The notes: a model not told the origin generated them from the sequence alone. 54,252 nucleotides of DNA from an uncultured Verrucomicrobiales bacterium (GCA_964351815.1 CAYGPH010000003.1:1-54252); one strand, 5' to 3'; shown: positions 30,868-54,252, numbered from the stretch's first letter. Numbers and translations are program-made.

Positions 30868-31197
30868 CTAATATTTCTTTAAATGTGTTTGAACATCTGC
30901 CCAAGCATCGATGCCCCCTGTAATGTTATAAACTATAGCAAAGTTTTTCGATATTAGAAACTGACAAGCACGAGCACTTCGTACACCATGGTGGCACAAA
31001 ACTGCTATTGGCTTATCCGTAGATATTTGATCGAAATCATGAAATAAATTTCCTAGGGGAATATGGTAATCGTGGTCAATGCATACGGTTTTTAATTCAG
31101 ATAATTCCCTAACGTCTAGGACGTAATAGTCAGGGCGGTGATCAATTAATTCTTGAACAGTAATACTTTGCATGCACTTAAAACGCAAACTGGTCAT
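30868..31197 (-). CDS. Rhodanese-domain protein
   Basis: 109 aa. Active-site loop CHHGVRS. Confidence 0.85.
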   Translation of the reverse strand: MTSLRFKCMQSITVQELIDHRPDYYVLDVRELSELKTVCIDHDYHIPLGNLFHDFDQISTDKPIAVLCHHGVRSARACQFLISKNFAIVYNITGGIDAWADVQTHLKKY

Positions 31198-31837
31198 GTT
31201 TTTTTAATGCTTCATAAATCGGCATTTTGGTTGCATATGACTTCATTTCAACAAGCTTATTATTTTGTTTTTGATACACTTTTATATGGCCACAATCTGT
31301 TTTTTCTTGGCTACATATAGCACCCGCCATTAAACCGCCATCAACAAGTAAATTTCCATAGGGCTCTAGAACTCCAGGATTACCAAATTCCCAGATAAGC
31401 CTATCAAAAGGGCCATGGCATGGATCACCTTTTACAATACTTGTTTTAAATATGTGTATTTTTTTATGGTTTGCAATTTTATTGGCACGTTTATAAAAAG
31501 TTTCATTGTCTTCAAAAGCATAAACATCGCACCCAAATTGCGCAAGCAGTGCTAGCGTATAGCCGTAATTACAGCCCAGTAAGCACACCTTATGATTTAT
31601 TTGTATTTCTAATGATTGCAGTAAAAACGCAAGGGCAATAGGACTATACATAGCCCTTGCTTCAGGATTTATTTGAATGGTGTCATCGCAATAAGGTTGG
31701 GCTTGATAAGCGACAGGAATATATTTCGCCCTAGATATACTTTTAAAAGCTTGTAATACTTGTGGATTTAGTATGCCGTTGGCCCTTAACTGATTATCTA
31801 CCATATTATGCATGGCGATATCTTCTGCGTTCATCAT
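31178..31837 (-). CDS. pcm: Protein-L-isoaspartate O-methyltransferase-like protein
   Basis: 219 aa. PCMT-like layout with the SAM-binding segment VCLLGCNYGYTLALLAQ. Confidence 0.72.
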   Translation of the reverse strand: MMNAEDIAMHNMVDNQLRANGILNPQVLQAFKSISRAKYIPVAYQAQPYCDDTIQINPEARAMYSPIALAFLLQSLEIQINHKVCLLGCNYGYTLALLAQFGCDVYAFEDNETFYKRANKIANHKKIHIFKTSIVKGDPCHGPFDRLIWEFGNPGVLEPYGNLLVDGGLMAGAICSQEKTDCGHIKVYQKQNNKLVEMKSYATKMPIYEALKKHDQFAF

Positions 31838-31907: not shown

Positions 31908-31981
31908 GGCCGGGTGGCAGAGTGGTGATGCAGAGGACTGCAAATCCTTGTACGCTGGTTCGATTCCGGTCCCGGCCTCCA
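31908..31981 (+). tRNA. tRNA-Cys (GCA)
   Basis: 74 nt. Acceptor GGCCGGG/CCCGGCC, anticodon loop CUGCAAA, T-arm GGTTCGATTCC, encoded CCA. Confidence 0.93.
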
Positions 31982-31991
31982 TTTTCTAACT

Positions 31992-33446
31992 TTATTTTAC
32001 AATTATTTGTAGATTACTGTTTCTTGGTATGTGTGATTGAATCAACGCCTGGTTGTTTTCATTTACTACTATTTCTTCAAGCCTTACGCATACATCTATA
32101 AAGAATTTCCCAATACTTTTTAAGCTTACAAGCCCAGAAAAGTCAGCATGGGTTAGGTTTTCGCAATGAAACATAAAGTAATTCCCAATAGTTTTTAAGC
32201 GAATAAGCCCAGAAAAGTCAGCGTGGGTAAGGCTTTTGCAGTGGCTCATAAAGTCATTCCCAACCCTTACTAAGTTTTGAAGCCCAGAAAAGTCAGCGTG
32301 GGTTAGCCTTAAGCAGTTACTCATAAAGTCATTCCCAATAGTTACTAAGTTTTGAAGCCCAGATAGGTCAGCATGGGTAAGCCTAAAGCAGTTCCACATA
32401 AAGCGATCATCAATAGTTTGTAAGCTAAAAAGCCCAGAAAAGTCAACATAGGTAAGGCTTTTGCAGCGAAACATAAAGTAACCCCCAATAGTTTTTAAAT
32501 GCTGCTGACTATCTGTTATACTAATACTTTTACAGTTTATGTTATCTATTGCTGCAGCTATACCCCAAGTTCCATACAAACAACTACCATCAGCTAACCT
32601 ACCATTATCATCTACCCTATCAATATCAACCACCAGGGTTGTCTCTTGATGGATAGCAAAAAAAGCTGTCATAGCTTCTAACTGATGATGAATATCACTT
32701 TCCTTAATCACCTTAAAGGTTGACACCCTATCAGTGTTGTGAACCCAGCTATAGCTTTCTGTGATACAAGCAATAAGTTTGCTTAAAGTACCCTCATCTA
32801 TATGACTTTGCAGAACTTGTTGTTGGGGAGTTAAAGATTTAGCTGTATGCGTATAGATATTATAGGCAGCATACTGGTGGTGTAAAGCAATACGGATAAG
32901 ATCTTTATCAGCAACAGCTTCAGCTTCGGTAGCTGTTAATAAACCTTCTGTTTCCATGGCTTCTAAAATAACATCTGCCAAGTTATGTTTTACGTAATCA
33001 CCTGTAATTAAATCCTGATACTGGCCATGGGCTATAAAGATGTCAGGGGAAGTTTCTTGTAAAACCTTAATAGCTAAAGATTTAAGGTCGCTGCTTTTGA
33101 AAACCCAAGGCGAAGTTGCATCATCTTTTGCTTTCTGGGCTGCGTCAATTGGTTGTAGGCAAGGCAACTGAATAATCAACCCATTATTAATATCTTTAGT
33201 ACTTAAGGGTTGTTTTAAATAAGCTATTTGTTTAACCATCATATTATGCTTATATTCTTCTACAACTCTTTTCAATAAATTTGATGAACTTGCAAGGCTG
33301 TCTAGGGCATCACGATCAAGATGCCTTAATATATTTTGCCAAACTTCCTGTGGCATCTCTGCTAAAACCGGTGTGGGTGAACTACTAGAGGCTGCGCTCA
33401 TAGAAAAGCAGCCCATGACACTAAGAACAATTAATAAATTGTACAT
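31992..33446 (-). CDS. F-box + 23-residue (BspA/TpLRR-type) leucine-rich-repeat protein, paralog 1
   Basis: 484 aa with a signal-like N-terminus. F-box-like MPQEVWQNILRHLDRDALDSL. About 6.5 C-terminal repeats of type FSGLxxLxxIGxxFMxxCxxLTHAD. Confidence 0.75.
   Translation of the reverse strand: MYNLLIVLSVMGCFSMSAASSSSPTPVLAEMPQEVWQNILRHLDRDALDSLASSSNLLKRVVEEYKHNMMVKQIAYLKQPLSTKDINNGLIIQLPCLQPIDAAQKAKDDATSPWVFKSSDLKSLAIKVLQETSPDIFIAHGQYQDLITGDYVKHNLADVILEAMETEGLLTATEAEAVADKDLIRIALHHQYAAYNIYTHTAKSLTPQQQVLQSHIDEGTLSKLIACITESYSWVHNTDRVSTFKVIKESDIHHQLEAMTAFFAIHQETTLVVDIDRVDDNGRLADGSCLYGTWGIAAAIDNINCKSISITDSQQHLKTIGGYFMFRCKSLTYVDFSGLFSLQTIDDRFMWNCFRLTHADLSGLQNLVTIGNDFMSNCLRLTHADFSGLQNLVRVGNDFMSHCKSLTHADFSGLIRLKTIGNYFMFHCENLTHADFSGLVSLKSIGKFFIDVCVRLEEIVVNENNQALIQSHIPRNSNLQIIVK
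32060..32530 (-). repeat. In-frame 69-bp tandem repeats encoding the LRR array of paralog 1
   Basis: The string aagcccagaaaagtcagc(a/g)tgggt recurs at 69-bp spacing. The units at about 32264-32332 and 32333-32401 are nearly identical. Confidence 0.85.
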
Positions 33447-33521
33447 AATAATACCAACAGTTTAAAACATTATTGCATACATAGTATTGGTTTAAGAAAA
33501 TATCAAGGTAAATTCTTAACT

Positions 33522-35213
33522 TTATTTTACAATTATTCGTGTATTACTGTATGCTGGCACGCTTGATTGAATCAATACCAGGTTGTTTTGATTTGCTATT
33601 ATTTCTTCAAGGCGTAAGCAGCGTTCCATAAACGGATCATCAATAGTTTCTAAGCTCTCAAGCCCAGAAAAGTCAGCATGGGTAAGGCTTTTGCATCCAT
33701 ACAAAAAACCCAGACCTAACTTTTGTAGTTTTAAAAAATCTAAAAAATTTATTTTATTTAGGTTTTTACATTGCACCAAAAAAAATTCCCCAATACTTAC
33801 TAACGCCAAAAGCTTTGAGATATTTATACGTGTTAAGCTTTCGCAATCTTGCATAAAGTAATTCCCAATAGTTTCTAAGCTCTCAAGCCCAGAGAAGTCA
33901 ACATTTTCTATTTTATTGCAATTATAAAGAAACCTATCACCAATATTTTCAAGTTTTGGCAGTTTAAAAAAGTTAACACCGGTTAAACTTTCACAACAGG
34001 ATAAAAAGTTATTTCCAATACTTTTAAGGGCTAAAAAACCAGAAAAATCGATGTTATGTAGGTTTTCACAAGAAGATAAAAAGTTATGACCAATTCTTTG
34101 TAAACCAGTCATACGTAAGAGATTTATATGGGTTAATTTTCTACATGTAGACATAAAATCACAACCGATAGTTAGTAGGGTTTCAAAACTAACAAAATTG
34201 ATACTTTTTATTTTTCTAAAACAATATAAAAAGCCTCTTTCAATACTTTTAAGGTGAAGTCTACTATTACTTATAACAAGATGTTCAAGGGCTGTTTTAT
34301 CAAAAAGATCTCCATATAAACAACTATCAGTTGGCAACAAACCACTAGCGTCTACTCGGTCAATATCAAGTATCAGAATAGCTTGGTGTTCAGCAAAGTA
34401 AGCACGCAAAGTTTCCAATTGATGATGTATATCACTTTCCCTTGCAACCTTAAAAGGGGTTAAAGTATCCGTATTGTGGGCCCAGCTATAGTTTTTTTGA
34501 ATGTAACTCATAACTTTACATAAACTTTCCCTTATACCTTTATTATTCTTTTTAAAGGTATCCTTAAGAAGCTGAGTAGTGTTTGGAATATCTTTATTCG
34601 TATACATTGTGTAATCAGCATACTTGTGGTGAAGCGCGATACGGATAAGATCTTTGTTAACGGCAGCACCTTCTTCTTCATATGCTTCACCTTGGAAAAG
34701 ACCCGCAGTTTCCATGGCTTCTAAAATAATATCTGCCAAGTTATGCGTTTCAAATCCTTTGTTTTGAAAACTGTGATAAAAAATACTGTGATAATAAATA
34801 TCGTTGGCTAAAAAAAAATTAGGGTTATCCTTTAGCAAATATTTGACTGCAGAATCCCGCAGATCTTGAGGCGCAAATGCTTCAAGCTTTGTCTGGTTTG
34901 TAGGTGAAAGGGCTATCTCTTTATAGGGCATTAAACATGGAAATCCAAATGTTCCTAATTCTCCATGCAAGCTTGTAGTTTTTATGGGTTGTACAAGATG
35001 CTTAATGATTTTATGTTTAAAAACTTCTTTGTACCTAGTTGTTTTCCTATGTAAGGATTTCGATAGTAGTGTTAAAGTTGCTAAATCTTTTCTTTGCAGG
35101 TATGAAAATATCTTTAAGGTTACCTCTTCAGGTAGTGTATTAAGGGGTTCTATTAAGCTTTGTGCTGCATTTAGGGATAAGCTAAACAGTATTGCTAATG
35201 AAAAATATTTCAT
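33522..35213 (-). CDS. F-box + 23-residue leucine-rich-repeat protein, paralog 2
   Basis: 563 aa with a signal-like N-terminus. Strong F-box match LPEEVTLKIFSYLQRKDLATLTLLSKSL. About 10 LRR units. It shares a central domain and the C-terminal IVK* with paralog 1. Confidence 0.78.
   Translation of the reverse strand: MKYFSLAILFSLSLNAAQSLIEPLNTLPEEVTLKIFSYLQRKDLATLTLLSKSLHRKTTRYKEVFKHKIIKHLVQPIKTTSLHGELGTFGFPCLMPYKEIALSPTNQTKLEAFAPQDLRDSAVKYLLKDNPNFFLANDIYYHSIFYHSFQNKGFETHNLADIILEAMETAGLFQGEAYEEEGAAVNKDLIRIALHHKYADYTMYTNKDIPNTTQLLKDTFKKNNKGIRESLCKVMSYIQKNYSWAHNTDTLTPFKVARESDIHHQLETLRAYFAEHQAILILDIDRVDASGLLPTDSCLYGDLFDKTALEHLVISNSRLHLKSIERGFLYCFRKIKSINFVSFETLLTIGCDFMSTCRKLTHINLLRMTGLQRIGHNFLSSCENLHNIDFSGFLALKSIGNNFLSCCESLTGVNFFKLPKLENIGDRFLYNCNKIENVDFSGLESLETIGNYFMQDCESLTRINISKLLALVSIGEFFLVQCKNLNKINFLDFLKLQKLGLGFLYGCKSLTHADFSGLESLETIDDPFMERCLRLEEIIANQNNLVLIQSSVPAYSNTRIIVK
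33590..34290 (-). repeat. In-frame 69-bp tandem repeats encoding the LRR array of paralog 2
   Basis: 23-aa periodicity (xLxxIGxxFLxxCxxLxxxxFxx). The repeats are more diverged from each other than in paralog 1. Confidence 0.8.
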
Positions 35214-35345
35214 ACTTGCTCTGTACAGGCAATAATCATTTTATAGTTTAAGCAATAAAAGTAATGGCTAACAATGAAATTATGAATGATTTTAGTATAA
35301 TCTTTTCAAGATAATTAAGAAACTCGATCATAGGGCAGGAATATA

Positions 35346-36158
35346 TTATTTTGTGAATATGGTCCTTGGCCTTATTCCTTCTTGTATAAGTTTTTTTTGG
35401 AGTTTTCTTAGGGCCTTAGATTCTATTTGTCTTACCCGTTCTTTTGTTATATTTAAATCTTTACCTATAGCTTCTAAAGTTTCGGAATCTGATGAGAGTC
35501 TTCGGCGTTTTAAAATTTTCCATTCCTTTTCATCTAAACATGTTATTGCCCGTTTTAAACCATCGCTACATTTCTGGTAGATTTCATGTTGCAATGCACT
35601 TTCTTCAACATTAGAATCCTGATCAACAAGTGTATCCATCCAGCTAATATTATCGCCACCAGAAATTTGTTCATCGAGATAGCGATCCTTAGATTGAAGA
35701 CGCATAAAAATACTTTTAACTTCTTCAATACTTGTTTCTACGTGCTCTGCTATCATGTAAGCGGTTTTGTCGTCTAAAAAATCTGTGTCCAGTTCCGATA
35801 CCAGGCGCTTAATGTGCTGCATTTGAAAGAAAAGTTTTTTTTGTTTGTTGCTACTACCAAGGCGAACCATAGACCAGTTTCGCATAACAAACTCCTGGCA
35901 GCAGGCGTTAATCCACCATTTTGCATAGCTTGAAAAACGAATTTCACGTTTTAAATCGAAACGTTTAAGTGCAATAACGACCCCCATTAGGGCTTCTTGA
36001 ATTAAATCTTCTTGCGAAACACCATAATGGCTATATTTTCGAATAATTTTAAAAACAAGAGGCCTGAAAGAGTTTAGTATTTTTTCAGCAGATTTATGAT
36101 GATCACTTTCTTGCCAGGCATGTATCAGATCAGATTCTTCTTTTTCTGTTAAAAACAC
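35346..36158 (-). CDS. rpoH: RNA polymerase sigma-32 (heat-shock sigma factor)
   Basis: 270 aa. Sigma-70 regions 2-4 and an RpoH-box-like NKQKKLFFQMQH. Confidence 0.9.
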   Translation of the reverse strand: MFLTEKEESDLIHAWQESDHHKSAEKILNSFRPLVFKIIRKYSHYGVSQEDLIQEALMGVVIALKRFDLKREIRFSSYAKWWINACCQEFVMRNWSMVRLGSSNKQKKLFFQMQHIKRLVSELDTDFLDDKTAYMIAEHVETSIEEVKSIFMRLQSKDRYLDEQISGGDNISWMDTLVDQDSNVEESALQHEIYQKCSDGLKRAITCLDEKEWKILKRRRLSSDSETLEAIGKDLNITKERVRQIESKALRKLQKKLIQEGIRPRTIFTK

Positions 36159-36287
36159 AAAAACTACCTTTCTGTCTTGTTAGTATCTTTGAAGGATAAC
36201 AAAATATGTGTTTATAGGGCGTTAACGATTCATAAAGTTTTTCCATATATTTTAAAGGAAGTAGTTTTTGAAATTTGCTAGGGTATT

Positions 36288-36524
36288 ATGCGTTTATTGA
36301 TTCTTTTTTTCATGCTGGCCATTAATATTAGTGCGGCGCCATCTTTACTTCCTTACCAAGAACAGGCTGTTGTGGCAGTTATAATGGGTAACCCGGAAGG
36401 TTTAAGTGAAGGGGGTGTAAGTTCTCAAGATCAGTATGTAGATCTTACACAAACAGCTGCAGCCAATAGTAAAATATTAGGTCTTGAACAAGAATACAGG
36501 TCTGAAGTGCCGGCTGCCCAATAA
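36288..36524 (+). CDS. Small hypothetical secreted protein
   Basis: 78-aa ORF with the signal-like N-terminus MRLLILFFMLAINISAAPS. No family recognised. Confidence 0.4.
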   Translation: MRLLILFFMLAINISAAPSLLPYQEQAVVAVIMGNPEGLSEGGVSSQDQYVDLTQTAAANSKILGLEQEYRSEVPAAQ

Positions 36525-36564
36525 TCATACGGCAAGAACTATTGAATCTGCCATTTGTTAGCTT

Positions 36565-37755
36565 TTAACTATAGGTTCTTTCACTTTTGAATCCATCTTT
36601 GTTTTTGAAAGGATTAAGCGGTGAAAGCAAATACCCAAAACACGTTAAAAAGCCGCAAAGTGTCATAAAAATACCCAAGTGGAAAAAGTGACCGTTATAT
36701 AAAAAACTAATAACTTCTACGGATATGGCTGTGAATATTAAACGTAACGCCATCAGTAGCACAGAAATTCTACCTTCAAAGCCTTTAATTAGCCTTAGCA
36801 TCATTGGGTAAACAACTGCGTTTGGAAAGGCAAAAAAGGCACAGAAAATAGCGGTTAAACCAGCAATGATAAAAGGATTGTCGGTTATAAAAATGGCTAA
36901 AAATCCATTAAATATGGAAAAAATAAGCATACCTAACATGGAAAAATTTAAACATTTTTCAAGTTCGAAATACTTTAAAATTTTTGCAGACATAATATTT
37001 ACTATGGCAAACGGTGCAATAATGCTGCCCTGTAATAATCCATAAGTTTTAATATCTACCTCCATTCCTTGCATAAAAAGAATAGGTCCCATGGCTATGA
37101 ATGTCCAAAATGCAATAACAACGGGAAATAGAAATATGAAATATGTTTGCAGTAATTTATTTTTTAACAGTTCAACATAACATTTTAAGTTAATGTTTAT
37201 TGAATAATTGGGGGTTTGGTCTTTTGGAAAATACTTAAAGGAAAATAAAAAACTAAAAATAGCGAGCATAAACAAAAATGCAAAATTTCCTCGCCATCCA
37301 AAGCTTGAAGTAATAAAGCTTCCTAGAGTTGGTGCAAGGGCCAATGATGCGGTAATAATTCCATTTAAGGTAGACACCTTAATTGTTTGATCATCACCCG
37401 TATAAGTTTTGACAATTATTAAGTATGGAATACATGAAATCGCTGCAATACCGAAGCCTTGAACAAAACGACCGGCTAATAATAGTGAAAAAGTATCTGC
37501 AAAGGTACATAAAATGCTGCCAACCCCGTATATGGCAAGACTAAATAAGGTAATACACTTTTCACCGTAACGATCGGCAAGGGGGCCAACAAAAAGTAAG
37601 GTTGCACAAAAACTTATAAAGTTAATCGTTAGGGTATACTGAACTTCTGCGGGGGTAAGTTGAAAAATGTTCTGCAGTTCAGGGTAGCATGGAATATATA
37701 AATCAAGTTCTGCTACTGCTAAAAAAGATACAAGAATAACAGTAAAAAAAAGCAC
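36565..37755 (-). CDS. MFS transporter (Bcr/CflA-like drug efflux type)
   Basis: 396 aa, about 12 TM segments. Motif A-like GPLADRYGEK. Confidence 0.85.
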   Translation of the reverse strand: MLFFTVILVSFLAVAELDLYIPCYPELQNIFQLTPAEVQYTLTINFISFCATLLFVGPLADRYGEKCITLFSLAIYGVGSILCTFADTFSLLLAGRFVQGFGIAAISCIPYLIIVKTYTGDDQTIKVSTLNGIITASLALAPTLGSFITSSFGWRGNFAFLFMLAIFSFLFSFKYFPKDQTPNYSININLKCYVELLKNKLLQTYFIFLFPVVIAFWTFIAMGPILFMQGMEVDIKTYGLLQGSIIAPFAIVNIMSAKILKYFELEKCLNFSMLGMLIFSIFNGFLAIFITDNPFIIAGLTAIFCAFFAFPNAVVYPMMLRLIKGFEGRISVLLMALRLIFTAISVEVISFLYNGHFFHLGIFMTLCGFLTCFGYLLSPLNPFKNKDGFKSERTYS

Positions 37756-37927
37756 TTAGAAAAATATTTTTGCAATCTATGAAAATTATAATATGTACAT
37801 ATGGTTAGCACAATTTTTTTCACAAAGTTGTATGTTAACTTATTTGCATCAATTTAATAAAAGCACTGCCTAGAAGTTTTTATTTTTGCTATTCTTGCCA
37901 CTAATAGCCTAATAAAAAAATATAGAA

Positions 37928-39226
37928 GTGATTTTGATGCGTACTTTTTTTTGTTTACTAAGTGTATTTACTTTTTCCTTGTACCCTTTAAAAATTGAGA
38001 TAACCCAAGGGGCTGTGCAACCTGATCCAATTGCCGTAGTTGATTTTGCAGGTGGCGAAGAAGGTCAGCTAATTACTGATATTATTAAAAATGATTTAAC
38101 GGCTTCTGGCCTATTTTTACCCCTTGATAAAAAAGCGTTTTTAAAAACATCGCTGCAACTTTTGTCTGGTAAACCCAATATGAATAACTGGCGCCCCATG
38201 AAAGCCCGCTTTCTTGCTTTTGGTCAGGTAAAAAACAACAGTGGTAACTTAGAAATTTTATACCATCTTTACGATGTAAAGACTGGCGCCTTAATGCAAA
38301 CGAAAAGCTTTTCTGGAACAAAAAAGACACTTCGTCGGATTGCGCACCTAGTTGCCGATAGTATTTATAGCCGTGTTACTGGGGAAGATGGTTTTTTTGA
38401 TACAAAAATTATCTATGTCGAAAACGTAAGCAATAAGCTTAACCACCCGAAAAAACGTATGATGATTATGGATTGGGATGGTCACAATAACTTACCGTTA
38501 ACCGATGATAAGTACCTTGTTTTAACCCCTCATATATCGCCCAACGGCCAAGAAATTGCCTACCTTGCATACAGAAACAAGGAAGCAAGGGTATGGATTT
38601 TTGACTTAAAAACCAGAAAATCAAGGGAATTAGGTAAATTTAATGGTATGACATTCGCACCAAACTACGCACCAGATAGTCGTTCGTTAACCCTAAGCTT
38701 TGAACGTGATGGAAAAAGCGCAATTTATTTAATGGATTTGGTCAATAAAAAACTTAAACAGCTTTCGACGCATCGTTCAATTGATACTTCTCCTTGTTTT
38801 TCACCCGATGGAAAAAGTATAGCTTTTATTTCAGATCGTGATGGGGTTCAGCCGCAACTTTTTATTATGGATGTAGATGGTACAAATGTCCGACGGATTA
38901 GTTTCGGCAATGGTAGGTACTTTCAACCTTCTTGGTCGCCACGGGGTGATTTAATTGCCTTTACTAAGCAGCGCGGCAAAAACTTTTACATAGGTGTGAT
39001 TTCACCCGATGGTAGTGGCGAACGTTTGATTTGTCAGGATTATTTAGTCGAAACGCCATCTTGGTCACCTAATGGCCGCTATGTCATTTTTAGCCGGCAA
39101 CGCTTTGGTGGCGATAAGATTCAAATTGAAATGATCGATTTAACAGGACGCCATAGCTACAAAATTCCCACGGCAAAAGGTGCCATTGATGGATCATGGT
39201 CACCTTTAATGTCGCGTGTAAAGTAA
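37928..39226 (+). CDS. tolB: Tol-Pal system beta-propeller protein TolB
   Basis: 432 aa. Signal peptide, N-terminal TolB domain and repeated propeller blades (SPxxSPDG / WSPxG). GTG 37928 or ATG 37937 start. Confidence 0.93.
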   Translation: MILMRTFFCLLSVFTFSLYPLKIEITQGAVQPDPIAVVDFAGGEEGQLITDIIKNDLTASGLFLPLDKKAFLKTSLQLLSGKPNMNNWRPMKARFLAFGQVKNNSGNLEILYHLYDVKTGALMQTKSFSGTKKTLRRIAHLVADSIYSRVTGEDGFFDTKIIYVENVSNKLNHPKKRMMIMDWDGHNNLPLTDDKYLVLTPHISPNGQEIAYLAYRNKEARVWIFDLKTRKSRELGKFNGMTFAPNYAPDSRSLTLSFERDGKSAIYLMDLVNKKLKQLSTHRSIDTSPCFSPDGKSIAFISDRDGVQPQLFIMDVDGTNVRRISFGNGRYFQPSWSPRGDLIAFTKQRGKNFYIGVISPDGSGERLICQDYLVETPSWSPNGRYVIFSRQRFGGDKIQIEMIDLTGRHSYKIPTAKGAIDGSWSPLMSRVK

Positions 39227-41535: not shown

Positions 41536-43152
41536 ATGCAGAGAAAATTCTTAAAAATTATTTTTACCATTTGCATGGCTTACAATGTTTTAGAAAGTGC
41601 AGATTTAGATAGAATAGAAAAAGCGCTTTTTATTTACCGCGATGCCCTTGAGGAAGTAAAGGAAAACTTACCCACTCCATCTGTAAAAGATTTTTGTGCT
41701 GAGTGTGAAGAAAAAATTATTTTTTTAGAAGCATCCCTTGGGCAAATAAGGGATGGAAATTTAACGTTATCAACCTTCCTGTGTGATTTTTTAAAGGATA
41801 GAATTGCTGAATACAACAATGATTTTTATATGTTTTGTTCAAGCGGCTTTAATGTTTGTGGACCTGCAACAAAGGAAATGTTAGATTTTTTTGTTGATAA
41901 AAAAATACTCCTAGATTTTACTGAAAATAGCCATATTCGTCCCCTATCTAGGCTTGAGGTGGTCGAAGAAAATTTGATTTTGTCTGTATTTGAAACAATG
42001 GTGAAAAGTGAAACTGTGTTTTCAAATGAACTGATAAAGGTATTATCCTATTCGGTCTCTCTTCATCCCCTGTTGCGCTACGAACGTTTGCCTAATGTGC
42101 AACTCGGCTGCCAATCAGGGCAAAAAATGCTGAAAGACTTTTATATGGTTTTTGAAAAATATTTATCATTCGCAGAAAGGGACTTAAAGAGTAATGACGA
42201 TATCAATAAGTTACTAAAAAAATATGTAACAGATTTAAGTGATGACGTAAATGTTAGCGTCAGGCTTAAGTATTTTTTGTCTCATTACATGCTTAATCAT
42301 TGCGGTTTTATAGTTCAAGGGGAGAGAAATCAAAGGGATTTTCAAAAAATTTTATGCGAAGATGTAAGAGTAAATTGGATTTTAGATCAAAAAAGTATTC
42401 GTAATTTTAGTAAATTGCTTGAGGATTTACAGCAGGTATTTGAAGATTATTACTGTAAATCTGATGTGTTTCATTATTGGACATGTCTAGCTAAAAAAAA
42501 GTATTCAAAAACAAACACTATATATTTCAAATCAATTTCATCTAATCCATTAGATTTTATTCCTGAACAATTGTTGTCTGAAAAAAAGTTAAAGGCTTTT
42601 CGTGGGAGAGGATTGGTTTCAAGTGCTTACTGTGAATTAAAGGAAGCTCATTTTTTTTCAACACATTTCCAATTTAGCCCTGCATCAAGTGATACTGAAG
42701 GAGTATTACAGGACTTGGATGTTCAAGAGACTTTAGGGGTTTTGGATAGGTTTGTGCCAGAGGAAGTTGAAGAAGAAGGGGCAGAGCAAGTAAATGCAAT
42801 GCAAGCACTCTCGCCTAGCAAAGAAACAATTATTGAATATAAGAAAAGAATCATTCCTGTATTACCATATCAAGGGCCGGTTCCTAAAGTTAACCAAAAA
42901 ACGTTAAAGGAACTTCATTTGCTTGTTGAAGAAAAAACAAAGTGGACCTTTAAGCGTTTTAAAAATCTATGGGAAAGACTTGGCGGAAAAATTGTAAATA
43001 ACAGTGGGGGAAGCCATTACGTTTTGCTAGGGCCAAACAATGAAAAAATTTGTGGAATTTTTAGGCCCCATGGCAATGGTGGTGAACAATATTCACCCAG
43101 AATTTTGCGTTATCTTCAGGCTTCATGTTATTATTTAGGTGTTTTGGGTTGA
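41536..43152 (+). CDS. Hypothetical secreted protein with HicA-like C-terminal domain
   Basis: 538 aa with a signal-like N-terminus. The last ~70 aa (LGGKIVNNSGGSHYVLLG...IFRPHGNGGEQYSPRILRYL...LGV) follow the HicA/YcfA pattern. Confidence 0.5.
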   Translation: MQRKFLKIIFTICMAYNVLESADLDRIEKALFIYRDALEEVKENLPTPSVKDFCAECEEKIIFLEASLGQIRDGNLTLSTFLCDFLKDRIAEYNNDFYMFCSSGFNVCGPATKEMLDFFVDKKILLDFTENSHIRPLSRLEVVEENLILSVFETMVKSETVFSNELIKVLSYSVSLHPLLRYERLPNVQLGCQSGQKMLKDFYMVFEKYLSFAERDLKSNDDINKLLKKYVTDLSDDVNVSVRLKYFLSHYMLNHCGFIVQGERNQRDFQKILCEDVRVNWILDQKSIRNFSKLLEDLQQVFEDYYCKSDVFHYWTCLAKKKYSKTNTIYFKSISSNPLDFIPEQLLSEKKLKAFRGRGLVSSAYCELKEAHFFSTHFQFSPASSDTEGVLQDLDVQETLGVLDRFVPEEVEEEGAEQVNAMQALSPSKETIIEYKKRIIPVLPYQGPVPKVNQKTLKELHLLVEEKTKWTFKRFKNLWERLGGKIVNNSGGSHYVLLGPNNEKICGIFRPHGNGGEQYSPRILRYLQASCYYLGVLG

Positions 43153-49823: not shown

Positions 49824-51388
49824 CAGACATCAATAAAGCTTTTCATTTAAAATCATGAGATTTTTTTCTTTCATGGTGAAATTTTTTTCATTATGTGTTA
49901 CGAATTAAAAAAAATAAATCGAACAAGATATGAAAAAATTTAGCCTAACCTTACTTTTTGTCACATGTTTATATGTTAACAGCCTTTTCGGTGCATCTTC
50001 TATGCCTGCACAATTTAGGGATGCAATAGCTGAATGCATCTTCCTTGAAGCAGAAAGTAATTTTAACAAAGCGCGGGCATTAGGTGAAAATCCAAAGCCT
50101 GTGCACGTTGCTGCCTGGGCTAAAGAACCTGCAGAATATAGCGCATTAAAAGCAATGCCAAAAAAAGAGAGGCAAAAAAAACAATGTGATTTTTATATAG
50201 AGGCGATGGAATTCGCAGGTAGGATTTTCGAAGGTGGTGCATTTTCCATTAGCCGCAATAGTTTATTATATCAAAGAATGTTTCTGCTAAATAACAAAGC
50301 ATCACATAATTTATTCGTAACTTACAAAAATTCAAGCAAGTATATTGAGCTTGATTTACGATCATATGAGGTATTTTATACATTAGCATTGTCAGGTATT
50401 TTTCAAGCTTATAGTGTTAAAGGAAAAAGATTTGTAGAAGACACTTTACTTCCAGAAATGATAAGAAATAATGAAAACATACTTGACCATGTAACATTTG
50501 ACATCGGAGAATATTTTGAAAATAAGGGTTCTAACATTTTTGAGTTTGTAGAAAAATGTGCTTTGAGGGATTTTTTGAATCAAGCAGTAAACGCAATCTC
50601 TGAAAATCATCCTACTTTCATAAGCTTTAAAGAATACTATCTACAGATAGGTATGAAACTACAGGGTGCACTAGAAAGCAGGGCATCAGCTACAAATCTT
50701 TTTAACAAAGCGCGGGCATTAGGAGAAAATCCAAAGCCTGTGCATGTTGCTGCCTGGGCCAATGAACAACAAGATTATAGCGCATTAAAAGCAATGCCAA
50801 AAGTAGAGAGGCAAAAAAAACAACATGATTTGTATTTAAAGGCGATAAATAACTTAGGTGGCTTTGATAAAATTGGTCAGCCTGAACTTTTGTCATGTCG
50901 AACATCACCTGAACAGCGGATGACCCTTAAAGAAAAAATTGTGCATAACCTATACACAATTTATAAGGATTCGCATCAACAGCTTAAAGTTGATTTATCT
51001 GCCTATTCAGATTTTTATAAAACAGCAATTTTGTTTAGTTATTATAAGTTTCACCTGCTTGACAAGGTATCTTTATACGATGTTTTGGTTGAAGAAATAA
51101 TCGAAATAAGTGAAATTCTGCTTGATACAATAACTGTTGATGACAAAGAAGCCTATATTCGAGTTAGGGATCAGCTTTATGATTTTGCTAAGGCTATTAA
51201 TAAAGAAGGTTGTTCAATAAGGGATCTGGCCGGTGTAACTGATAATGAAGAGATGAGAAAAGTCTTTGAAAAAATTTCTTCAAGAACTTCACGTGAAAGA
51301 ATTCAAGATGCAATACTTCTGCAAATGTTCGTGTTAACATAGGTTTTTATTCTGTAATATTTCGCATACCATTATTTAGAAAAACAAC
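49691..51388 (+). repeat. Tandem duplication unit 1 (1698 bp): PBP 3' tail + intergenic region + two-module secreted-protein gene
   Basis: Positions 49703-50004 are identical by eye to 51401-51702 (offset 1698). The unit is bounded by A-rich junctions caataaacca.../caagaaacta.... Confidence 0.88.
49930..51342 (+). CDS. Hypothetical secreted protein, two-module member of a local paralog family
   Basis: 470 aa with signal-like MKKFSLTLLFVTCLYVNSLFGASS. An internal module repeats 213 codons apart (FNKARALGENPKPVHVAAWA...YSALKAMPK.ERQKKQ). Confidence 0.6.
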   Translation: MKKFSLTLLFVTCLYVNSLFGASSMPAQFRDAIAECIFLEAESNFNKARALGENPKPVHVAAWAKEPAEYSALKAMPKKERQKKQCDFYIEAMEFAGRIFEGGAFSISRNSLLYQRMFLLNNKASHNLFVTYKNSSKYIELDLRSYEVFYTLALSGIFQAYSVKGKRFVEDTLLPEMIRNNENILDHVTFDIGEYFENKGSNIFEFVEKCALRDFLNQAVNAISENHPTFISFKEYYLQIGMKLQGALESRASATNLFNKARALGENPKPVHVAAWANEQQDYSALKAMPKVERQKKQHDLYLKAINNLGGFDKIGQPELLSCRTSPEQRMTLKEKIVHNLYTIYKDSHQQLKVDLSAYSDFYKTAILFSYYKFHLLDKVSLYDVLVEEIIEISEILLDTITVDDKEAYIRVRDQLYDFAKAINKEGCSIRDLAGVTDNEEMRKVFEKISSRTSRERIQDAILLQMFVLT

Positions 51389-51627: not shown

Positions 51628-52394
51628 ATGAAAAAATTTAGCCTAACCTTACTTTTTGTCACATGTTTATATGTTAACAGCCTTTTCGGTGCATCTTCTA
51701 TGTCAGCACCAGTAAGGGATGCAATAGCTGAATGCATGTTCCAAGAAGCAGAAAGTTATTTTAACAAAGCGCGGGCATTAGGTGAAAATCCAAAGCCTGT
51801 GCATGTTGGTGCCTGGGCCAATGAACAACAAGATTATAGCGCATTAAAAGCAATGCCAAAAGTAGAGAGGCAAAAAAAACAACATGATTTGTATTTAAAG
51901 GCGATAAATAGCTTAGGTGGCTTTTATATAATTGGTCAGCCTGAACTTTTTTCATGTCGAACATCACCTGAACAGCCGATGACCCTTAAAGAAAAAATAG
52001 TGCATAACCTATACACAATTTATAAGGATTCGCATCAACAGCTTAAAGTGGATTTATCTTCCTATTCAGATTTTTATAAAACAGCAATTTTGTTTAATTA
52101 TTATAAGTTTCACCTGCTTGAATTGTCATCCTTATACGATGCTTTTGCTGCAAAAATAACCGAAATAAGTGCTACGATACAATAACTGTTGATGACAAAG
52201 AAGCCTATAAGGCAGTTAGGCATCAGCTTTATGATTTTGCAAAAGCCATTAACAGTAAAGTTTGTTCATTAGAAGATCTGGCCGGTATAACTGATAATGA
52301 AGGGATGAGAAAAGCCATTGAAGGGTCTTATCCAGCGCTTTCACGTGAAAGAATTGAGCTAGCAATATTTGGTCAAATGCTTGCGAGAACATAG
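51628..52394 (+). pseudogene. One-module paralog of the 49930 gene, disrupted by a frameshift
   Basis: The 185-aa ORF stops at 52185. The homologous C-terminal ~70 aa (TITVDDKEAYKAVRHQLYDFAKAIN...) continue intact in another frame to TAG 52392-52394. There is a 7-nt net deletion near 52170 relative to 51110-51125. Confidence 0.7.
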
Positions 52395-52472: not shown

Positions 52473-54026
52473 ATGGATTTTAATTTTTGGCCTAAGGGTG
52501 TTTTTTTCATTAGTACATGTGTTAGCGTTAATTTCCTAGCACTTAACGCTGCTACACCTTTAAGTGCTACTGAATTTTCAAATCAGTTTTTTGAACCAGA
52601 AGACAACGTAAAACGTGAATTTGTTGTTGAAGGAATTCATAGTTCCTTAAGGAGCGTTTTGCCAAAAATGGCTTTATCAAGCGGAAGGCATTTTCATGAT
52701 TTTATTTATTGTTTGATGCATAAAAAAATTTTCACCGACCATGATAAAGCTCATCTTTGCAAAATCATTGGTGCTAACCTAGATTCTGAAAAATTTACTT
52801 TTTTGCGTATGTTTGTTAATAAATTTTGGGAAGCAAAGCGACACACCTTTGATATATCAACTATTCACACGGCTATTGAAAGTATATTAAATCCATTGCG
52901 GGGATGTTATTTATTATTTTTAGAAAGTCGCTACACAGCATCGCCAAAAGATCCTTTTCTAAACGGTCTTGGTGATATCACTAGCTTAAATCTTAGCGGA
53001 AAAAAATTAAAGCAATTAGAAGTTGGATGCTTTGCCGCCTTTCAAAGCCTAAAATCGCTTGATCTTAGTGATAATAATTTGGTAGCTTTTCAGGCTCAAA
53101 CTTTTTTGGGTCTTGGCAATTTAAAAGATCTTTATCTCCAAAACAATCAAATAGATGATATTGACGTTAATTCTTTCTTGGGGTTAAAGTTTTTAGAAAC
53201 ATTGAATTTAAGTAATAATAATTTAGCAAGATTTTGTACACAAACCTTAGCGAGTTTTCATTCTTTACAGCATCTATTTCTTGGTGGAAACAAGCTAAAA
53301 AGAATTGAGGCTGGTAGATCAAAAATAAATATTTATTCCACTTTTAGAACCACTGGCGTTGCTTTTAGCAGTGGTGGCGTTGGCAAAGTTGACGATGCAA
53401 AGTTGCAAGGATATCAAAACCTTAAAACCTTAGATTTAAGCTCTAATAACTTAACTGAATTTGACGCAAGGGCATTTCATGGTATTTGTGCATTGGAAAA
53501 CCTGAATCTTAATCATAATGCCCTATCAGAAATCCACCCTGATACATTTCAAGGTTTGGTTCGTTTGACAGTTTTAGATTTAAGCAACAATCAAATTCAA
53601 GGGCTAAATCATAAATGTTTTTCCGCTCTCGCTTCCCTTGTAACGCTTTATATAAGATATAATAGAATAATGATTCTGCATCCAGAGGCATTTGCTAAAC
53701 TTGTATCCTTGCGTGAGCTGTACCTTAAAGAAAATCAAATTAAACTTGATCCTGAGCTAAAATTACCGGCATCTTTAACCGTGTTAGAACTTGATGAAAA
53801 TCGACTTGATAGCTTAAGTGTTGATTTTTTTCAGGGTATGGAAAAGCTTACCAGCCTATCTTTGGTAAACAATAAATTAAAAATATTCCCTGATTTTGAA
53901 AGATTACGTTCTTTGCAGATATTAGATTTATCAGGCAATCCCCTTGAAAAGCTCTCAAAAACGCATGGTTACCTTGGTAAGACTCAACTGCACGATCGTC
54001 TTGGCGCGTGTTTACAGGTTTCATAA
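52473..54026 (+). CDS. Leucine-rich-repeat protein (24-residue typical LRRs) with an unknown N-terminal domain
   Basis: 517 aa with a hydrophobic N-terminus. It has at least 12 units of LxxLxLxxNxLxxxxxxxFxxL (for example LKSLDLSDNNLVAFQAQTFLGLGN). Confidence 0.8.
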   Translation: MDFNFWPKGVFFISTCVSVNFLALNAATPLSATEFSNQFFEPEDNVKREFVVEGIHSSLRSVLPKMALSSGRHFHDFIYCLMHKKIFTDHDKAHLCKIIGANLDSEKFTFLRMFVNKFWEAKRHTFDISTIHTAIESILNPLRGCYLLFLESRYTASPKDPFLNGLGDITSLNLSGKKLKQLEVGCFAAFQSLKSLDLSDNNLVAFQAQTFLGLGNLKDLYLQNNQIDDIDVNSFLGLKFLETLNLSNNNLARFCTQTLASFHSLQHLFLGGNKLKRIEAGRSKINIYSTFRTTGVAFSSGGVGKVDDAKLQGYQNLKTLDLSSNNLTEFDARAFHGICALENLNLNHNALSEIHPDTFQGLVRLTVLDLSNNQIQGLNHKCFSALASLVTLYIRYNRIMILHPEAFAKLVSLRELYLKENQIKLDPELKLPASLTVLELDENRLDSLSVDFFQGMEKLTSLSLVNNKLKIFPDFERLRSLQILDLSGNPLEKLSKTHGYLGKTQLHDRLGACLQVS

Positions 54027-54187: not shown

Positions 54188-54252
54188 TGGAGCGGGCGAA
54201 GGGATTCGAACCCTCGACTTCAACCTTGGCAAGGTTGCGCTCTACCCCTGAG
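54188..54252 (-). tRNA. tRNA-Gly (GCC), 3' two-thirds (5' end outside the window)
   Basis: The reverse complement reads ...CTCAGGGGTAGAGCGCAACCTTGCCAAGGTTGAAGTCGAGGGTTCGAATCCCTTCGCCCGCTCCA. Anticodon loop UUGCCAA, T-loop GGTTCGAATCC, encoded CCA. Confidence 0.85.

Follow-up and report, generated by a model that had tools for sequence, protein, structure and literature searches.

Tandem genes for candidate F-box and leucine-rich repeat proteins with putative Sec-type signal peptides beside a bacterial tRNA-Cys

Introduction

Why should a bacterial genome encode two neighbouring proteins in which a signal peptide, an F-box and an array of leucine-rich repeats (LRRs) follow one another along a single chain? 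This question is raised by a pair of genes on contig CAYGPH010000003.1 of the assembly GCA_964351815.1 (positions 1-54252); 'the window' in the following denotes this whole 54-kb stretch (54,252 nucleotides, nt), and all coordinates are counted from its first letter. Our reading, to which we assign a probability of roughly 0.55 and which draws on sequence comparison and structure prediction, is that the two proteins, of 484 and 563 amino acids (aa), are exported mimics of the substrate adaptors of Skp1-Cul1-F-box (SCF) ubiquitin ligases.

As to the origin of the window, the best named matches of its GyrB come from Paracaedibacteraceae and Ca. Odyssella acanthamoebae (65%), both in Holosporales, and unnamed metagenomic sequences reach 73-75%. 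We tentatively assign the source to an uncultured alphaproteobacterium, with protist endosymbionts (Paracaedibacteraceae, Holosporales) as its nearest named relatives. Holosporales are obligately associated with eukaryotes, mostly protists, and a 2025 review calls their host-interaction mechanisms 'still poorly understood', naming a type VI system as the sole delivery candidate (PMC11909080); the words ubiquitin, leucine-rich and eukaryotic-like are absent from its text, and our literature search did not find 'F-box' paired with 'Holosporales'. The principle of bacterial F-box mimicry of host ubiquitination is well established and not new. The pair is of interest as a concrete effector candidate for a lineage related to Holosporales, as part of a near-orphan family that has five members among 1.84 billion representatives and a middle domain without a known fold, and for the question of the route to Skp1 that a putative Sec signal peptide ahead of an F-box raises.

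Architecture of the gene pair

The two genes are intact open reading frames (ORFs) on the minus strand, 31992..33446 (484 aa, P0002) and 33522..35213 (563 aa, P0001), flanked by rpoH on one side and by the 3' end of a tRNA-Cys gene on the other. The proteins align from end to end (36% identity, E 2e-103), and their difference in length corresponds to three additional repeat units in the 563-aa protein. Both consist of a putative Sec-type signal peptide, an F-box, an orphan domain (some 200 aa), an LRR array of the BspA/TpLRR type and a C-terminal cap ending in IIVK. By sequence, they would be diverged tandem duplicates, part of a small family of 'eukaryote-like' exported proteins that is confined to one lineage.

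This agrees with most of what the initial annotation had described, namely two adjacent minus-strand paralogs of these lengths, a signal-like N-terminus in each (short and hydrophobic in both), a conserved central region (the orphan domain, which aligns between the paralogs), a common C-terminal IVK, and a distance of 10 nt between the end of the 484-aa gene and the CCA of the tRNA-Cys (exactly 31982..31991). It had also seen similarity continuing for about 10 nt past the stop codons; five of these align without a gap (AGTTA), and the longer stretch is reached only with a 1-nt indel, which is a trivial point. The similar 3' ends of the two genes are the conserved LRR C-terminal cap and not a special signal. 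Scans for promoters and terminators in the region gave matches no commoner than in shuffled sequence. The parts of the two genes are as follows.

31992..33446, minus strand: 484-aa paralog P0002; ORF with LRR_5 at 58.6 bits and F-box at 17.9 bits (sub-threshold)
31995..32096, minus strand: its C-terminal LRR cap ending in IIVK, aa 451-484; 77% identical in nucleotides to the corresponding stretch of its paralog
32097..32642, minus strand: its LRR array, about aa 269-450, with a probable degenerate entry unit (TLVVDIDRVDDNG...) and six 25-aa units; 75-nt periodicity, unit table, LRR_5
32643..33215, minus strand: its orphan central alpha/beta domain, about aa 78-268; conserved with the paralog, no match in Pfam, NCBIfam or PDB
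33216..33362, minus strand: its F-box (MPQEVWQNILRHLDRDALDSLASSSNLLKRVV...), about aa 29-77; Pfam F-box E 0.003 at aa 30-63, aligned with the F-box of the 563-aa protein
33387..33446, minus strand: its putative Sec-type signal peptide (MYNLLIVLSVMGCFSMSAAS), aa 1-20; a 13-residue hydrophobic core, then small residues, with A-A invariant in 5/5 family members
33447..33521, no strand: 75-nt spacer between the paralogs; direct sequence reading
33522..35213, minus strand: 563-aa paralog P0001; ORF with F-box-like 31.7, F-box 25.9 and LRR_5 80.3 bits, all above curated cut-offs
33525..33626, minus strand: its C-terminal LRR cap ending in IIVK, aa 530-563; helix 545-551 and strand 559-562 at a predicted local distance difference test (pLDDT) of about 87; the counterpart in the family member P0244 reads ...EIIVKDN
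33627..34382, minus strand: its LRR array, aa 278-529, with a probable degenerate entry unit (AILILDIDRVDASGLLP...) and nine 25-aa units; 75-nt periodicity, unit table, model pLDDT 80-89, Foldseek
34383..34994, minus strand: its orphan central alpha/beta domain, aa 74-277; predicted alternation of strands and helices, no structural or sequence match
34995..35141, minus strand: its F-box (LPEEVTLKIFSYLQRKDLATLTLLSKSLHRK...), aa 25-73; Pfam match at aa 25-56, predicted helices, Foldseek
35157..35213, minus strand: its putative Sec-type signal peptide (MKYFSLAILFSLSLNAAQS), aa 1-19; hydropathy, invariant A16-A17, low-confidence helix 2-13

The F-box

The curated Pfam cut-offs lie at 20.5 bits for F-box (PF00646) and 24.3 bits for F-box-like (PF12937). 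The 563-aa protein passes both, with 31.7 bits for F-box-like (E 1.3e-7) and 25.9 bits for F-box, and P0244, a distant member of the family, does so on its own (27.7 and 26.4 bits); P0002, P0242 and P0243 have sub-threshold matches at the same position. The initial annotation had seen an F-box-like motif in both paralogs, of which the profile check upholds the one in the 563-aa protein, whereas the 484-aa protein fails by itself and is counted as an F-box protein because it is homologous to its above-threshold paralog.

In an AlphaFold2 model of residues 22-245 of the 563-aa protein (pLDDT 74.6, and 80-87 over the F-box), the F-box is predicted to form three helices (29-36, 41-48 and 52-73). 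A Foldseek comparison of this N-terminal model with the PDB places F-box chains from Skp1/SCF complexes in about 30 of the first 50 positions; the proteins matched are Cdc4, Fbw7, FBXO42, FBXO3, Fbx4, Skp2, FBXL5, FBXL2 and Legionella AnkB (5k35). It superposes on these Skp1-complex F-boxes with a root-mean-square deviation (RMSD) of 1.0-1.7 Å over 33-52 residues and a probability of up to 0.97. Among viral structures (BFVD, Foldseek), giant-virus F-box proteins account for 38 of the top 50 matches. Given the profiles and the predicted fold, we regard the F-box call as sound for the family, though weak in some of its members.

The repeat array and its cap

For LRR_5 (BspA-type, PF13306), the Pfam cut-off of 27.7 bits is exceeded by both the 563-aa (80.3 bits) and the 484-aa protein (58.6 bits). 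The array of 23-residue repeats proposed at the outset is therefore real as an LRR_5/BspA-type array, but its unit measures 25 aa, with a period of 75 nt and the consensus xxCxxLTxxDFSGLxxLxxIGxxFM. The number of units is about 6-7 for the 484-aa protein, against 9-10 for its longer paralog.

The full-length AlphaFold2 model of the 563-aa protein is of moderate quality (pLDDT 64.7, with the stretch 244-364 poorly modelled). It likewise shows the three N-terminal helices. Its solenoid reaches a pLDDT of 80-89 and has one strand per 25 residues, followed by helix 545-551; the IIVK forms the closing strand (559-562). In Foldseek, the solenoid matches 4fs7 (E 1e-6), TpLRR 6mlx (E 1.7e-5), 4h09 and PcpA 4cp6, with E-values ranging from 1e-6 to 1e-4. 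We also considered IIVK as a C-terminal secretion signal and rejected this in favour of an LRR C-cap, as it forms a confidently modelled terminal strand of the solenoid.

Units A3 and A4 of the 484-aa protein are identical in 20 of 25 residues. Since neighbouring units can be this similar while the paralogs as a whole share 36%, the sequences indicate continuing remodelling of the arrays by unit duplication. Because unit number and unit sequence vary between the paralogs and the remodelling of the arrays goes on, the two proteins probably have different targets.

The nearest relatives of the array use a 25-aa unit of the form 'C..L..IDLSGL..L..IGN.FL' and occur in P0003 (L001 2881..5793) and P0005 (L011 1442..3922, L012 2987..5467). 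Their contigs are AT-rich (21% GC for that of P0003), look like giant-virus or eukaryotic DNA, and carry KilA-N, T5orf172/MUG113, PCIF1_WW, tubulin-tyrosine ligase and dynamin-like genes nearby, a set that is typical of giant viruses or eukaryotes. These sequences hint that the LRR subtype circulates among protist-associated genomes, and its presence on giant-virus-looking contigs would fit gene exchange inside protists.

The signal peptide

By inspection and hydropathy, the elements of a signal peptide (n-region, hydrophobic core of 10-15 residues, small residues at -3/-1) are present at the N-terminus. In all five members of the family the hydrophobic core measures 12-13 residues, and an invariant Ala-Ala comes after it. 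The core is too short for a membrane anchor, and these N-termini resemble the signal peptides of TolB and of a TolC-like protein encoded on the same contig. We interpret them as putative Sec-type (signal peptidase I-like) signal peptides, which would argue against delivery of the pair by a type III secretion system (T3SS). A lipoprotein was considered for the VMGC of the 484-aa protein and dismissed, as this motif is not kept across the family.

Further proteins with such N-termini are encoded near the end of the contig. Two orphan paralogs, 49930..51342 (plus strand, 470 aa) and 51628..52185 (plus strand, 185 aa), open with the identical signal peptide MKKFSLTLLFVTCLYVNSLFGASSM and have no Pfam match; the former is an internal tandem duplication of a module of about 230 aa (repeat 'NKARALGENPKPVHVAAWA...YSALKAMPK.ERQKKQ'), and the two may constitute another secreted, lineage-specific family. 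A 517-aa protein (52473..54026, plus strand) carries a strong eukaryote-like LRR_8 array (279 bits) behind a hydrophobic N-terminus that ends ...LALNAATPLSA, with an LNAA-type motif as in the F-box family, and is a second signal-peptide-bearing LRR protein of the contig. Together with its orphan neighbours, it suggests a broader Sec-dependent secretome aimed at a host.

The central domain

The central region of the 563-aa protein is predicted to alternate between strands and helices over aa 90-245 (pLDDT about 60-84). The domain of about 200 aa has no match in Pfam, NCBIfam or PDB sequences, nor by Foldseek in the PDB and among viral structures.

The most conserved motif of the family is a hydrophobic strand followed by D-x-D-R-V-D-x-x-G-x-L-P (LILDIDRVD / LVVDIDRVD), which is invariant in 5/5 members.

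34346..34381: D-x-D-R-V motif of the 563-aa protein, aa 278-289; in a region modelled at pLDDT below 50
32607..32642: D-x-D-R-V motif of the 484-aa protein, aa 269-280

In BLASTP, DIDRVDASGLL pairs with an ordinary LRR unit (..NIDLSGLSNL..) of P0003, and because of this alignment we read the motif as, probably, a degenerate unit with which the LRR array opens. Less weight was given to the DXD site of a glycosyl- or nucleotidyl-transferase in view of this pairing and of the lack of a Pfam or PDB match for the central domain, although the sequence may still serve in metal or nucleotide binding.

Distribution of the family

When 5.8 billion proteins were searched by word index, the neighbouring paralog was the sole full-length relative, all other matches being confined to the LRR part. 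A HMMER profile that covers the signal peptide, the F-box and the central region but not the LRRs was run exhaustively against 1.84 billion representatives and yielded six proteins: P0001, P0242, P0243, P0244, P0245 and one unrelated protein that shares just the F-box. P0242 is about 80% identical to the 484-aa protein and represents it in these results; P0243 (485 aa) and P0244 (548 aa) match the profile with E-values of 5.5e-23 and 3.6e-8, respectively. The full-length family thus comprises five members, all of which keep the whole architecture. This includes members down to 25% identity, and the two that pass the F-box cut-offs share 25-27%.

P0244 is encoded at L002 86..1732, next to clpX and at 35% GC, and ends ...EIIVKDN; P0245 (L009 369..740) is a 123-aa fragment without an F-box. 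Both stem from the sequencing run ERR3534985. A Logan contig of the same run is 100% identical to window positions 33666..39158 and is broken off within the LRR array. This run contains no fewer than three full members, plus one fragment, and the family is probably dispersed over several loci of one genome.

No match was obtained in species-representative genomes, either with the F-box and central profile or with RpoH. The family was likewise not found among JGI metagenome contigs and viral contigs, and plasmid and phage collections gave weak LRR-only matches and nothing more. Look-ups with the exact sequences of P0001, P0242 and P0243 led to no recorded contig, and those by protein cluster yielded no names. 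A literature search found no mention of run ERR3534985.

History of the locus

The pair is bounded by the following features.

31178..31837, minus strand: pcm (protein-L-isoaspartate O-methyltransferase), flanking marker, followed by rhodanese and TolC-like OEP genes; Pfam PCMT, Rhodanese and OEP, with identical order in L007
31908..31981, plus strand: tRNA-Cys (GCA) with encoded CCA, whose 3' end forms one edge of the insertion; ARAGORN, Rfam tRNA 60.1 bits, 67/74 identical to the syntenic tRNA-Cys of L007
31982..31991, no strand: 10-nt spacer from the tRNA 3' end to the TAA stop of the convergent 484-aa gene; direct sequence reading
35214..35345, no strand: 132-nt spacer that separates the rpoH stop from the 563-aa gene start and forms the second edge of the insertion; sequence
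35346..36158, minus strand: RpoH-like sigma factor, flanking marker; Sigma70_r2 and r4, with relatives named sigma-32 by their sources

A relative (L007/L008) has the order rpoH, 20 nt, tRNA-Cys on the opposite strand, pcm, rhodanese and OEP, and its 11-kb locus contains no member of the F-box family. The 20 nt that separate its rpoH stop from its tRNA 3' end thus correspond to 3.36 kb in the window, occupied by the pair. Identities to the window are 41% for RpoH, 39% for OEP, 45% for rhodanese, 28% for pcm and 67/74 for the tRNA-Cys. In sequence terms, the pair appears to have arisen or landed exactly at the tRNA 3' end; a loss in L007/L008 may also account for the difference. The RpoH relatives L003 and L005 show no conserved synteny and are uninformative. 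In L007 (6024..11439), the flagellar genes FlgI, FlgK and FliW lie directly downstream of the TolC-like gene, where the window has an RNase D-like gene.

The initial annotation had proposed DNA acquired at the tRNA and a comparison of synteny at pcm-tRNA-Cys-rpoH. The latter places the pair as absent from this distant relative (RpoH 41%), in line with acquisition; the marks of an acquired element are missing. No integrase ORF lies between rpoH and pcm, the tRNA 3' end does not recur, even with three mismatches allowed, and flanking direct repeats are absent; the GC content of the pair (0.33-0.37) and that of its third codon positions (GC3, 0.26-0.32) match those of the neighbouring genes. A classical tRNA-integrated island was rejected for the lack of an integrase, of an att-like repeat and of a compositional shift, and the insertion is therefore old or came about by other means than a classical integrative element.

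The genes that flank the pair are common bacterial housekeeping genes: a cluster of ribosomal proteins, SecY and RpoA, and genes for transketolase, malic enzyme, RNase D, the TolC-like OEP, rhodanese, pcm, RpoH, MFS, TolB, GyrB and PBP1. Two large ORFs, 17121..19205 (minus strand, 694 aa) and 41536..43152 (plus strand, 538 aa), match no Pfam family at E<=0.01 and are possibly further lineage-specific proteins. A partial tRNA (54191..54252, minus strand, Rfam 46.4 bits) is cut by the contig end.

Proposed function and alternatives

How might such proteins work? The initial annotation had proposed a duplicated host-targeting E3-adaptor mimic with the LRR array as its substrate-binding part, and this is partly supported: the F-box profile matches, the predicted three-helix fold, the true BspA/TpLRR-type array and the absence of the pair from the relative's locus all agree with it. 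The putative signal peptide of about 20 aa would direct export across the inner membrane and be cleaved, leaving the F-box near the mature N-terminus. The protein would then leave the cell envelope and enter the host cytosol, where the three-helix F-box, whose fold is predicted in silico, could dock on host Skp1 and thereby recruit Cul1-Rbx1. The solenoid of BspA/TpLRR type, with about 7 or 10 units of 25 aa, would bind a host protein on its concave face, and the orphan domain (about 200 aa) would be a rigid spacer setting the orientation of the solenoid relative to the F-box. The bound protein might be ubiquitinated, or Skp1 might be titrated away. The in silico evidence supports the domain identities and the fold; that the proteins are exported, enter the host, bind Skp1 and recognise targets is what we infer.

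Several observations weigh against this proposal. The Pfam F-box cut-off is missed by three of the five members of the family, the 484-aa paralog among them; the score of that paralog (17.9 bits, E 0.003) is below the required 20.5 bits, yet its match lies at the homologous position. Each single Foldseek match to an F-box is non-significant (E 0.3-3), so only their enrichment is telling; the E-values are weak because the domain is short. The best single-sequence match in a PDB sequence search, the F-box of yeast Cdc4, has an E-value of 0.13. Furthermore, the conserved putative Sec signal peptide, which the initial annotation had noted without weighing it, is unexpected for substrates of type III, type IV or type VI secretion systems and could mean a periplasmic or surface location, where many BspA-type LRR proteins are found, and no secretion system genes are seen on the 54-kb contig. 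Finally, an intracellular or host-associated lifestyle is suggested only by distant relatives (65% GyrB), and the syntenic relative L007/L008 is itself distant (RpoH 41%).

A more far-reaching version of the adaptor-mimic reading may be formulated, which we find doubtful and offer tentatively. According to it, the pair would represent the first candidate for an effector family that acts on the ubiquitin system in a Holosporales-like symbiont of protists, in which a Sec-exported F-box protein reaches the host cytosol without a dedicated injection system, as for periplasmic proteins of Holospora; the orphan domain would then be a new functional module, contacting Skp1/Cul1 or catalytic, and not a passive spacer. 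Titles in the reference list of PMC11909080 provide a precedent, in that they speak of Holospora periplasmic proteins released into the host during infection.

Alternatively, the proteins could stay periplasmic or at the surface after Sec export, as BspA-like adhesins or receptors, with the F-box-like helices serving as a mere N-terminal cap or oligomerisation element without any link to SCF. The conserved putative Sec-type signal peptide would suit this role, as would the modest F-box scores, sub-threshold in 3/5 members, and the best structural matches of the LRRs are indeed bacterial surface or secreted proteins (TpLRR 6mlx, pneumococcal PcpA 4cp6 and Bacteroides 4fs7). We nevertheless consider it unlikely, given that two members with a mutual identity of 25-27% each exceed the curated F-box thresholds, and do so in the same place, and that F-boxes bound to Skp1 can be superposed on the predicted fold at about 1 Å. 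Moreover, searches of Pfam and NCBIfam detected no anchoring domain in the proteins, be it an autotransporter, a C-terminal domain of the type IX secretion system or a family-wide lipobox, and we know of no F-box with a role in the bacterial envelope.

The identical F-box evidence, from Pfam and from the fold, would also accommodate a sponge, in which the F-box binds host Skp1 and no substrate is presented, so that Skp1/Cul1 is titrated and host SCF activity dampened, with the LRRs and the central domain acting in localisation or stability. For the F-box Ank effectors of Orientia, binding to Cul1 has been reported, and the bacterium lowers nuclear Cul1 levels (PMC11895443). However, the fast diversification of the repeats in unit number and sequence is what would be expected of a target-recognition surface and not of a passive module, which makes inhibition without substrate presentation improbable in our view.

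Lastly, an artefact of the assembly, contamination from a host or a virus, or functionless pseudogenes in decay can be set aside as highly improbable: the closest LRR relatives do lie on giant-virus- or eukaryote-looking contigs, and short-read contigs break within the array, but both ORFs are intact (484 and 563 aa), their GC and GC3 match those of the surrounding housekeeping genes, members as distant as 25% identity retain the whole architecture, and an independent Logan assembly joins the 563-aa gene to rpoH, MFS and tolB at 100% identity over 33666..39158.

Comparison with known systems

The adaptor-mimic reading places the pair beside several bacterial effectors. The GALA (RipG) type III effectors of Ralstonia solanacearum have repeats with a 24-aa GALA-type LRR consensus. 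They reportedly bind Skp1-like proteins, a result ascribed to Angot and colleagues in 2006. Like the pair, they possess an N-terminal F-box followed by LRRs, come as several paralogs and are proposed host SCF adaptors (PMC13243912). They differ in their 24-aa GALA-type repeats, in delivery by a T3SS and in the lack of a signal peptide; the pair, by contrast, has a 25-aa BspA/TpLRR unit without the GALA motif, the orphan domain of about 200 aa between F-box and LRRs, and a putative Sec signal peptide. Outside generic domains, the search of 1.84 billion representatives revealed no sequence homology between the two.

NEX1a of Neochlamydia, an endosymbiont of amoebae, is similarly built from an N-terminal F-box and C-terminal LRRs, is lineage-specific and has expanded by duplication (Domman et al. 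2014, PMC4209131). Interference with host ubiquitination has been proposed for it, and the term 'signal peptide' is absent from the text of this study (PMC4209131). The NEX1 family counts about 138 members, has a linker of about 50 aa and belongs to Chlamydiae, whereas for the family of the pair 5 members are detectable, the middle domain measures about 200 aa and the assignment is to Alphaproteobacteria. No homology to NEX1a beyond the F-box was detected with the F-box and central profile among the 1.84 billion representatives, where a family of 138 members, had it been related, would have appeared in an exhaustive search.

AnkB/LegU1 of Legionella pneumophila and the Ank-F-box effectors of Orientia are likewise bacterial F-box proteins that engage host Skp1/Cul1. 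In contrast to the pair, they use ankyrin repeats as the binding module and have no Sec signal peptide, and the F-box of the Orientia proteins is C-terminal. Delivery of the Orientia Anks proceeds by a type I secretion system. AnkB is delivered by the Dot/Icm type IV secretion system (PMC2790608).

BspA/TpLRR-type proteins (6mlx, 4fs7, 4cp6), finally, belong to the same LRR_5 class and share the predicted solenoid fold; as typical surface proteins they have a Sec signal peptide, of which the pair carries a putative one. Their unit is about 23 aa and they have no F-box, whereas the pair combines a 25-aa unit with a DFSGL insert and an F-box. By analogy, the two proteins would work like the known bacterial F-box/LRR effectors, yet they appear to belong to none of these families, because their LRR type, their orphan middle domain and their putative Sec signal peptide differ and no homology extends beyond generic domains.

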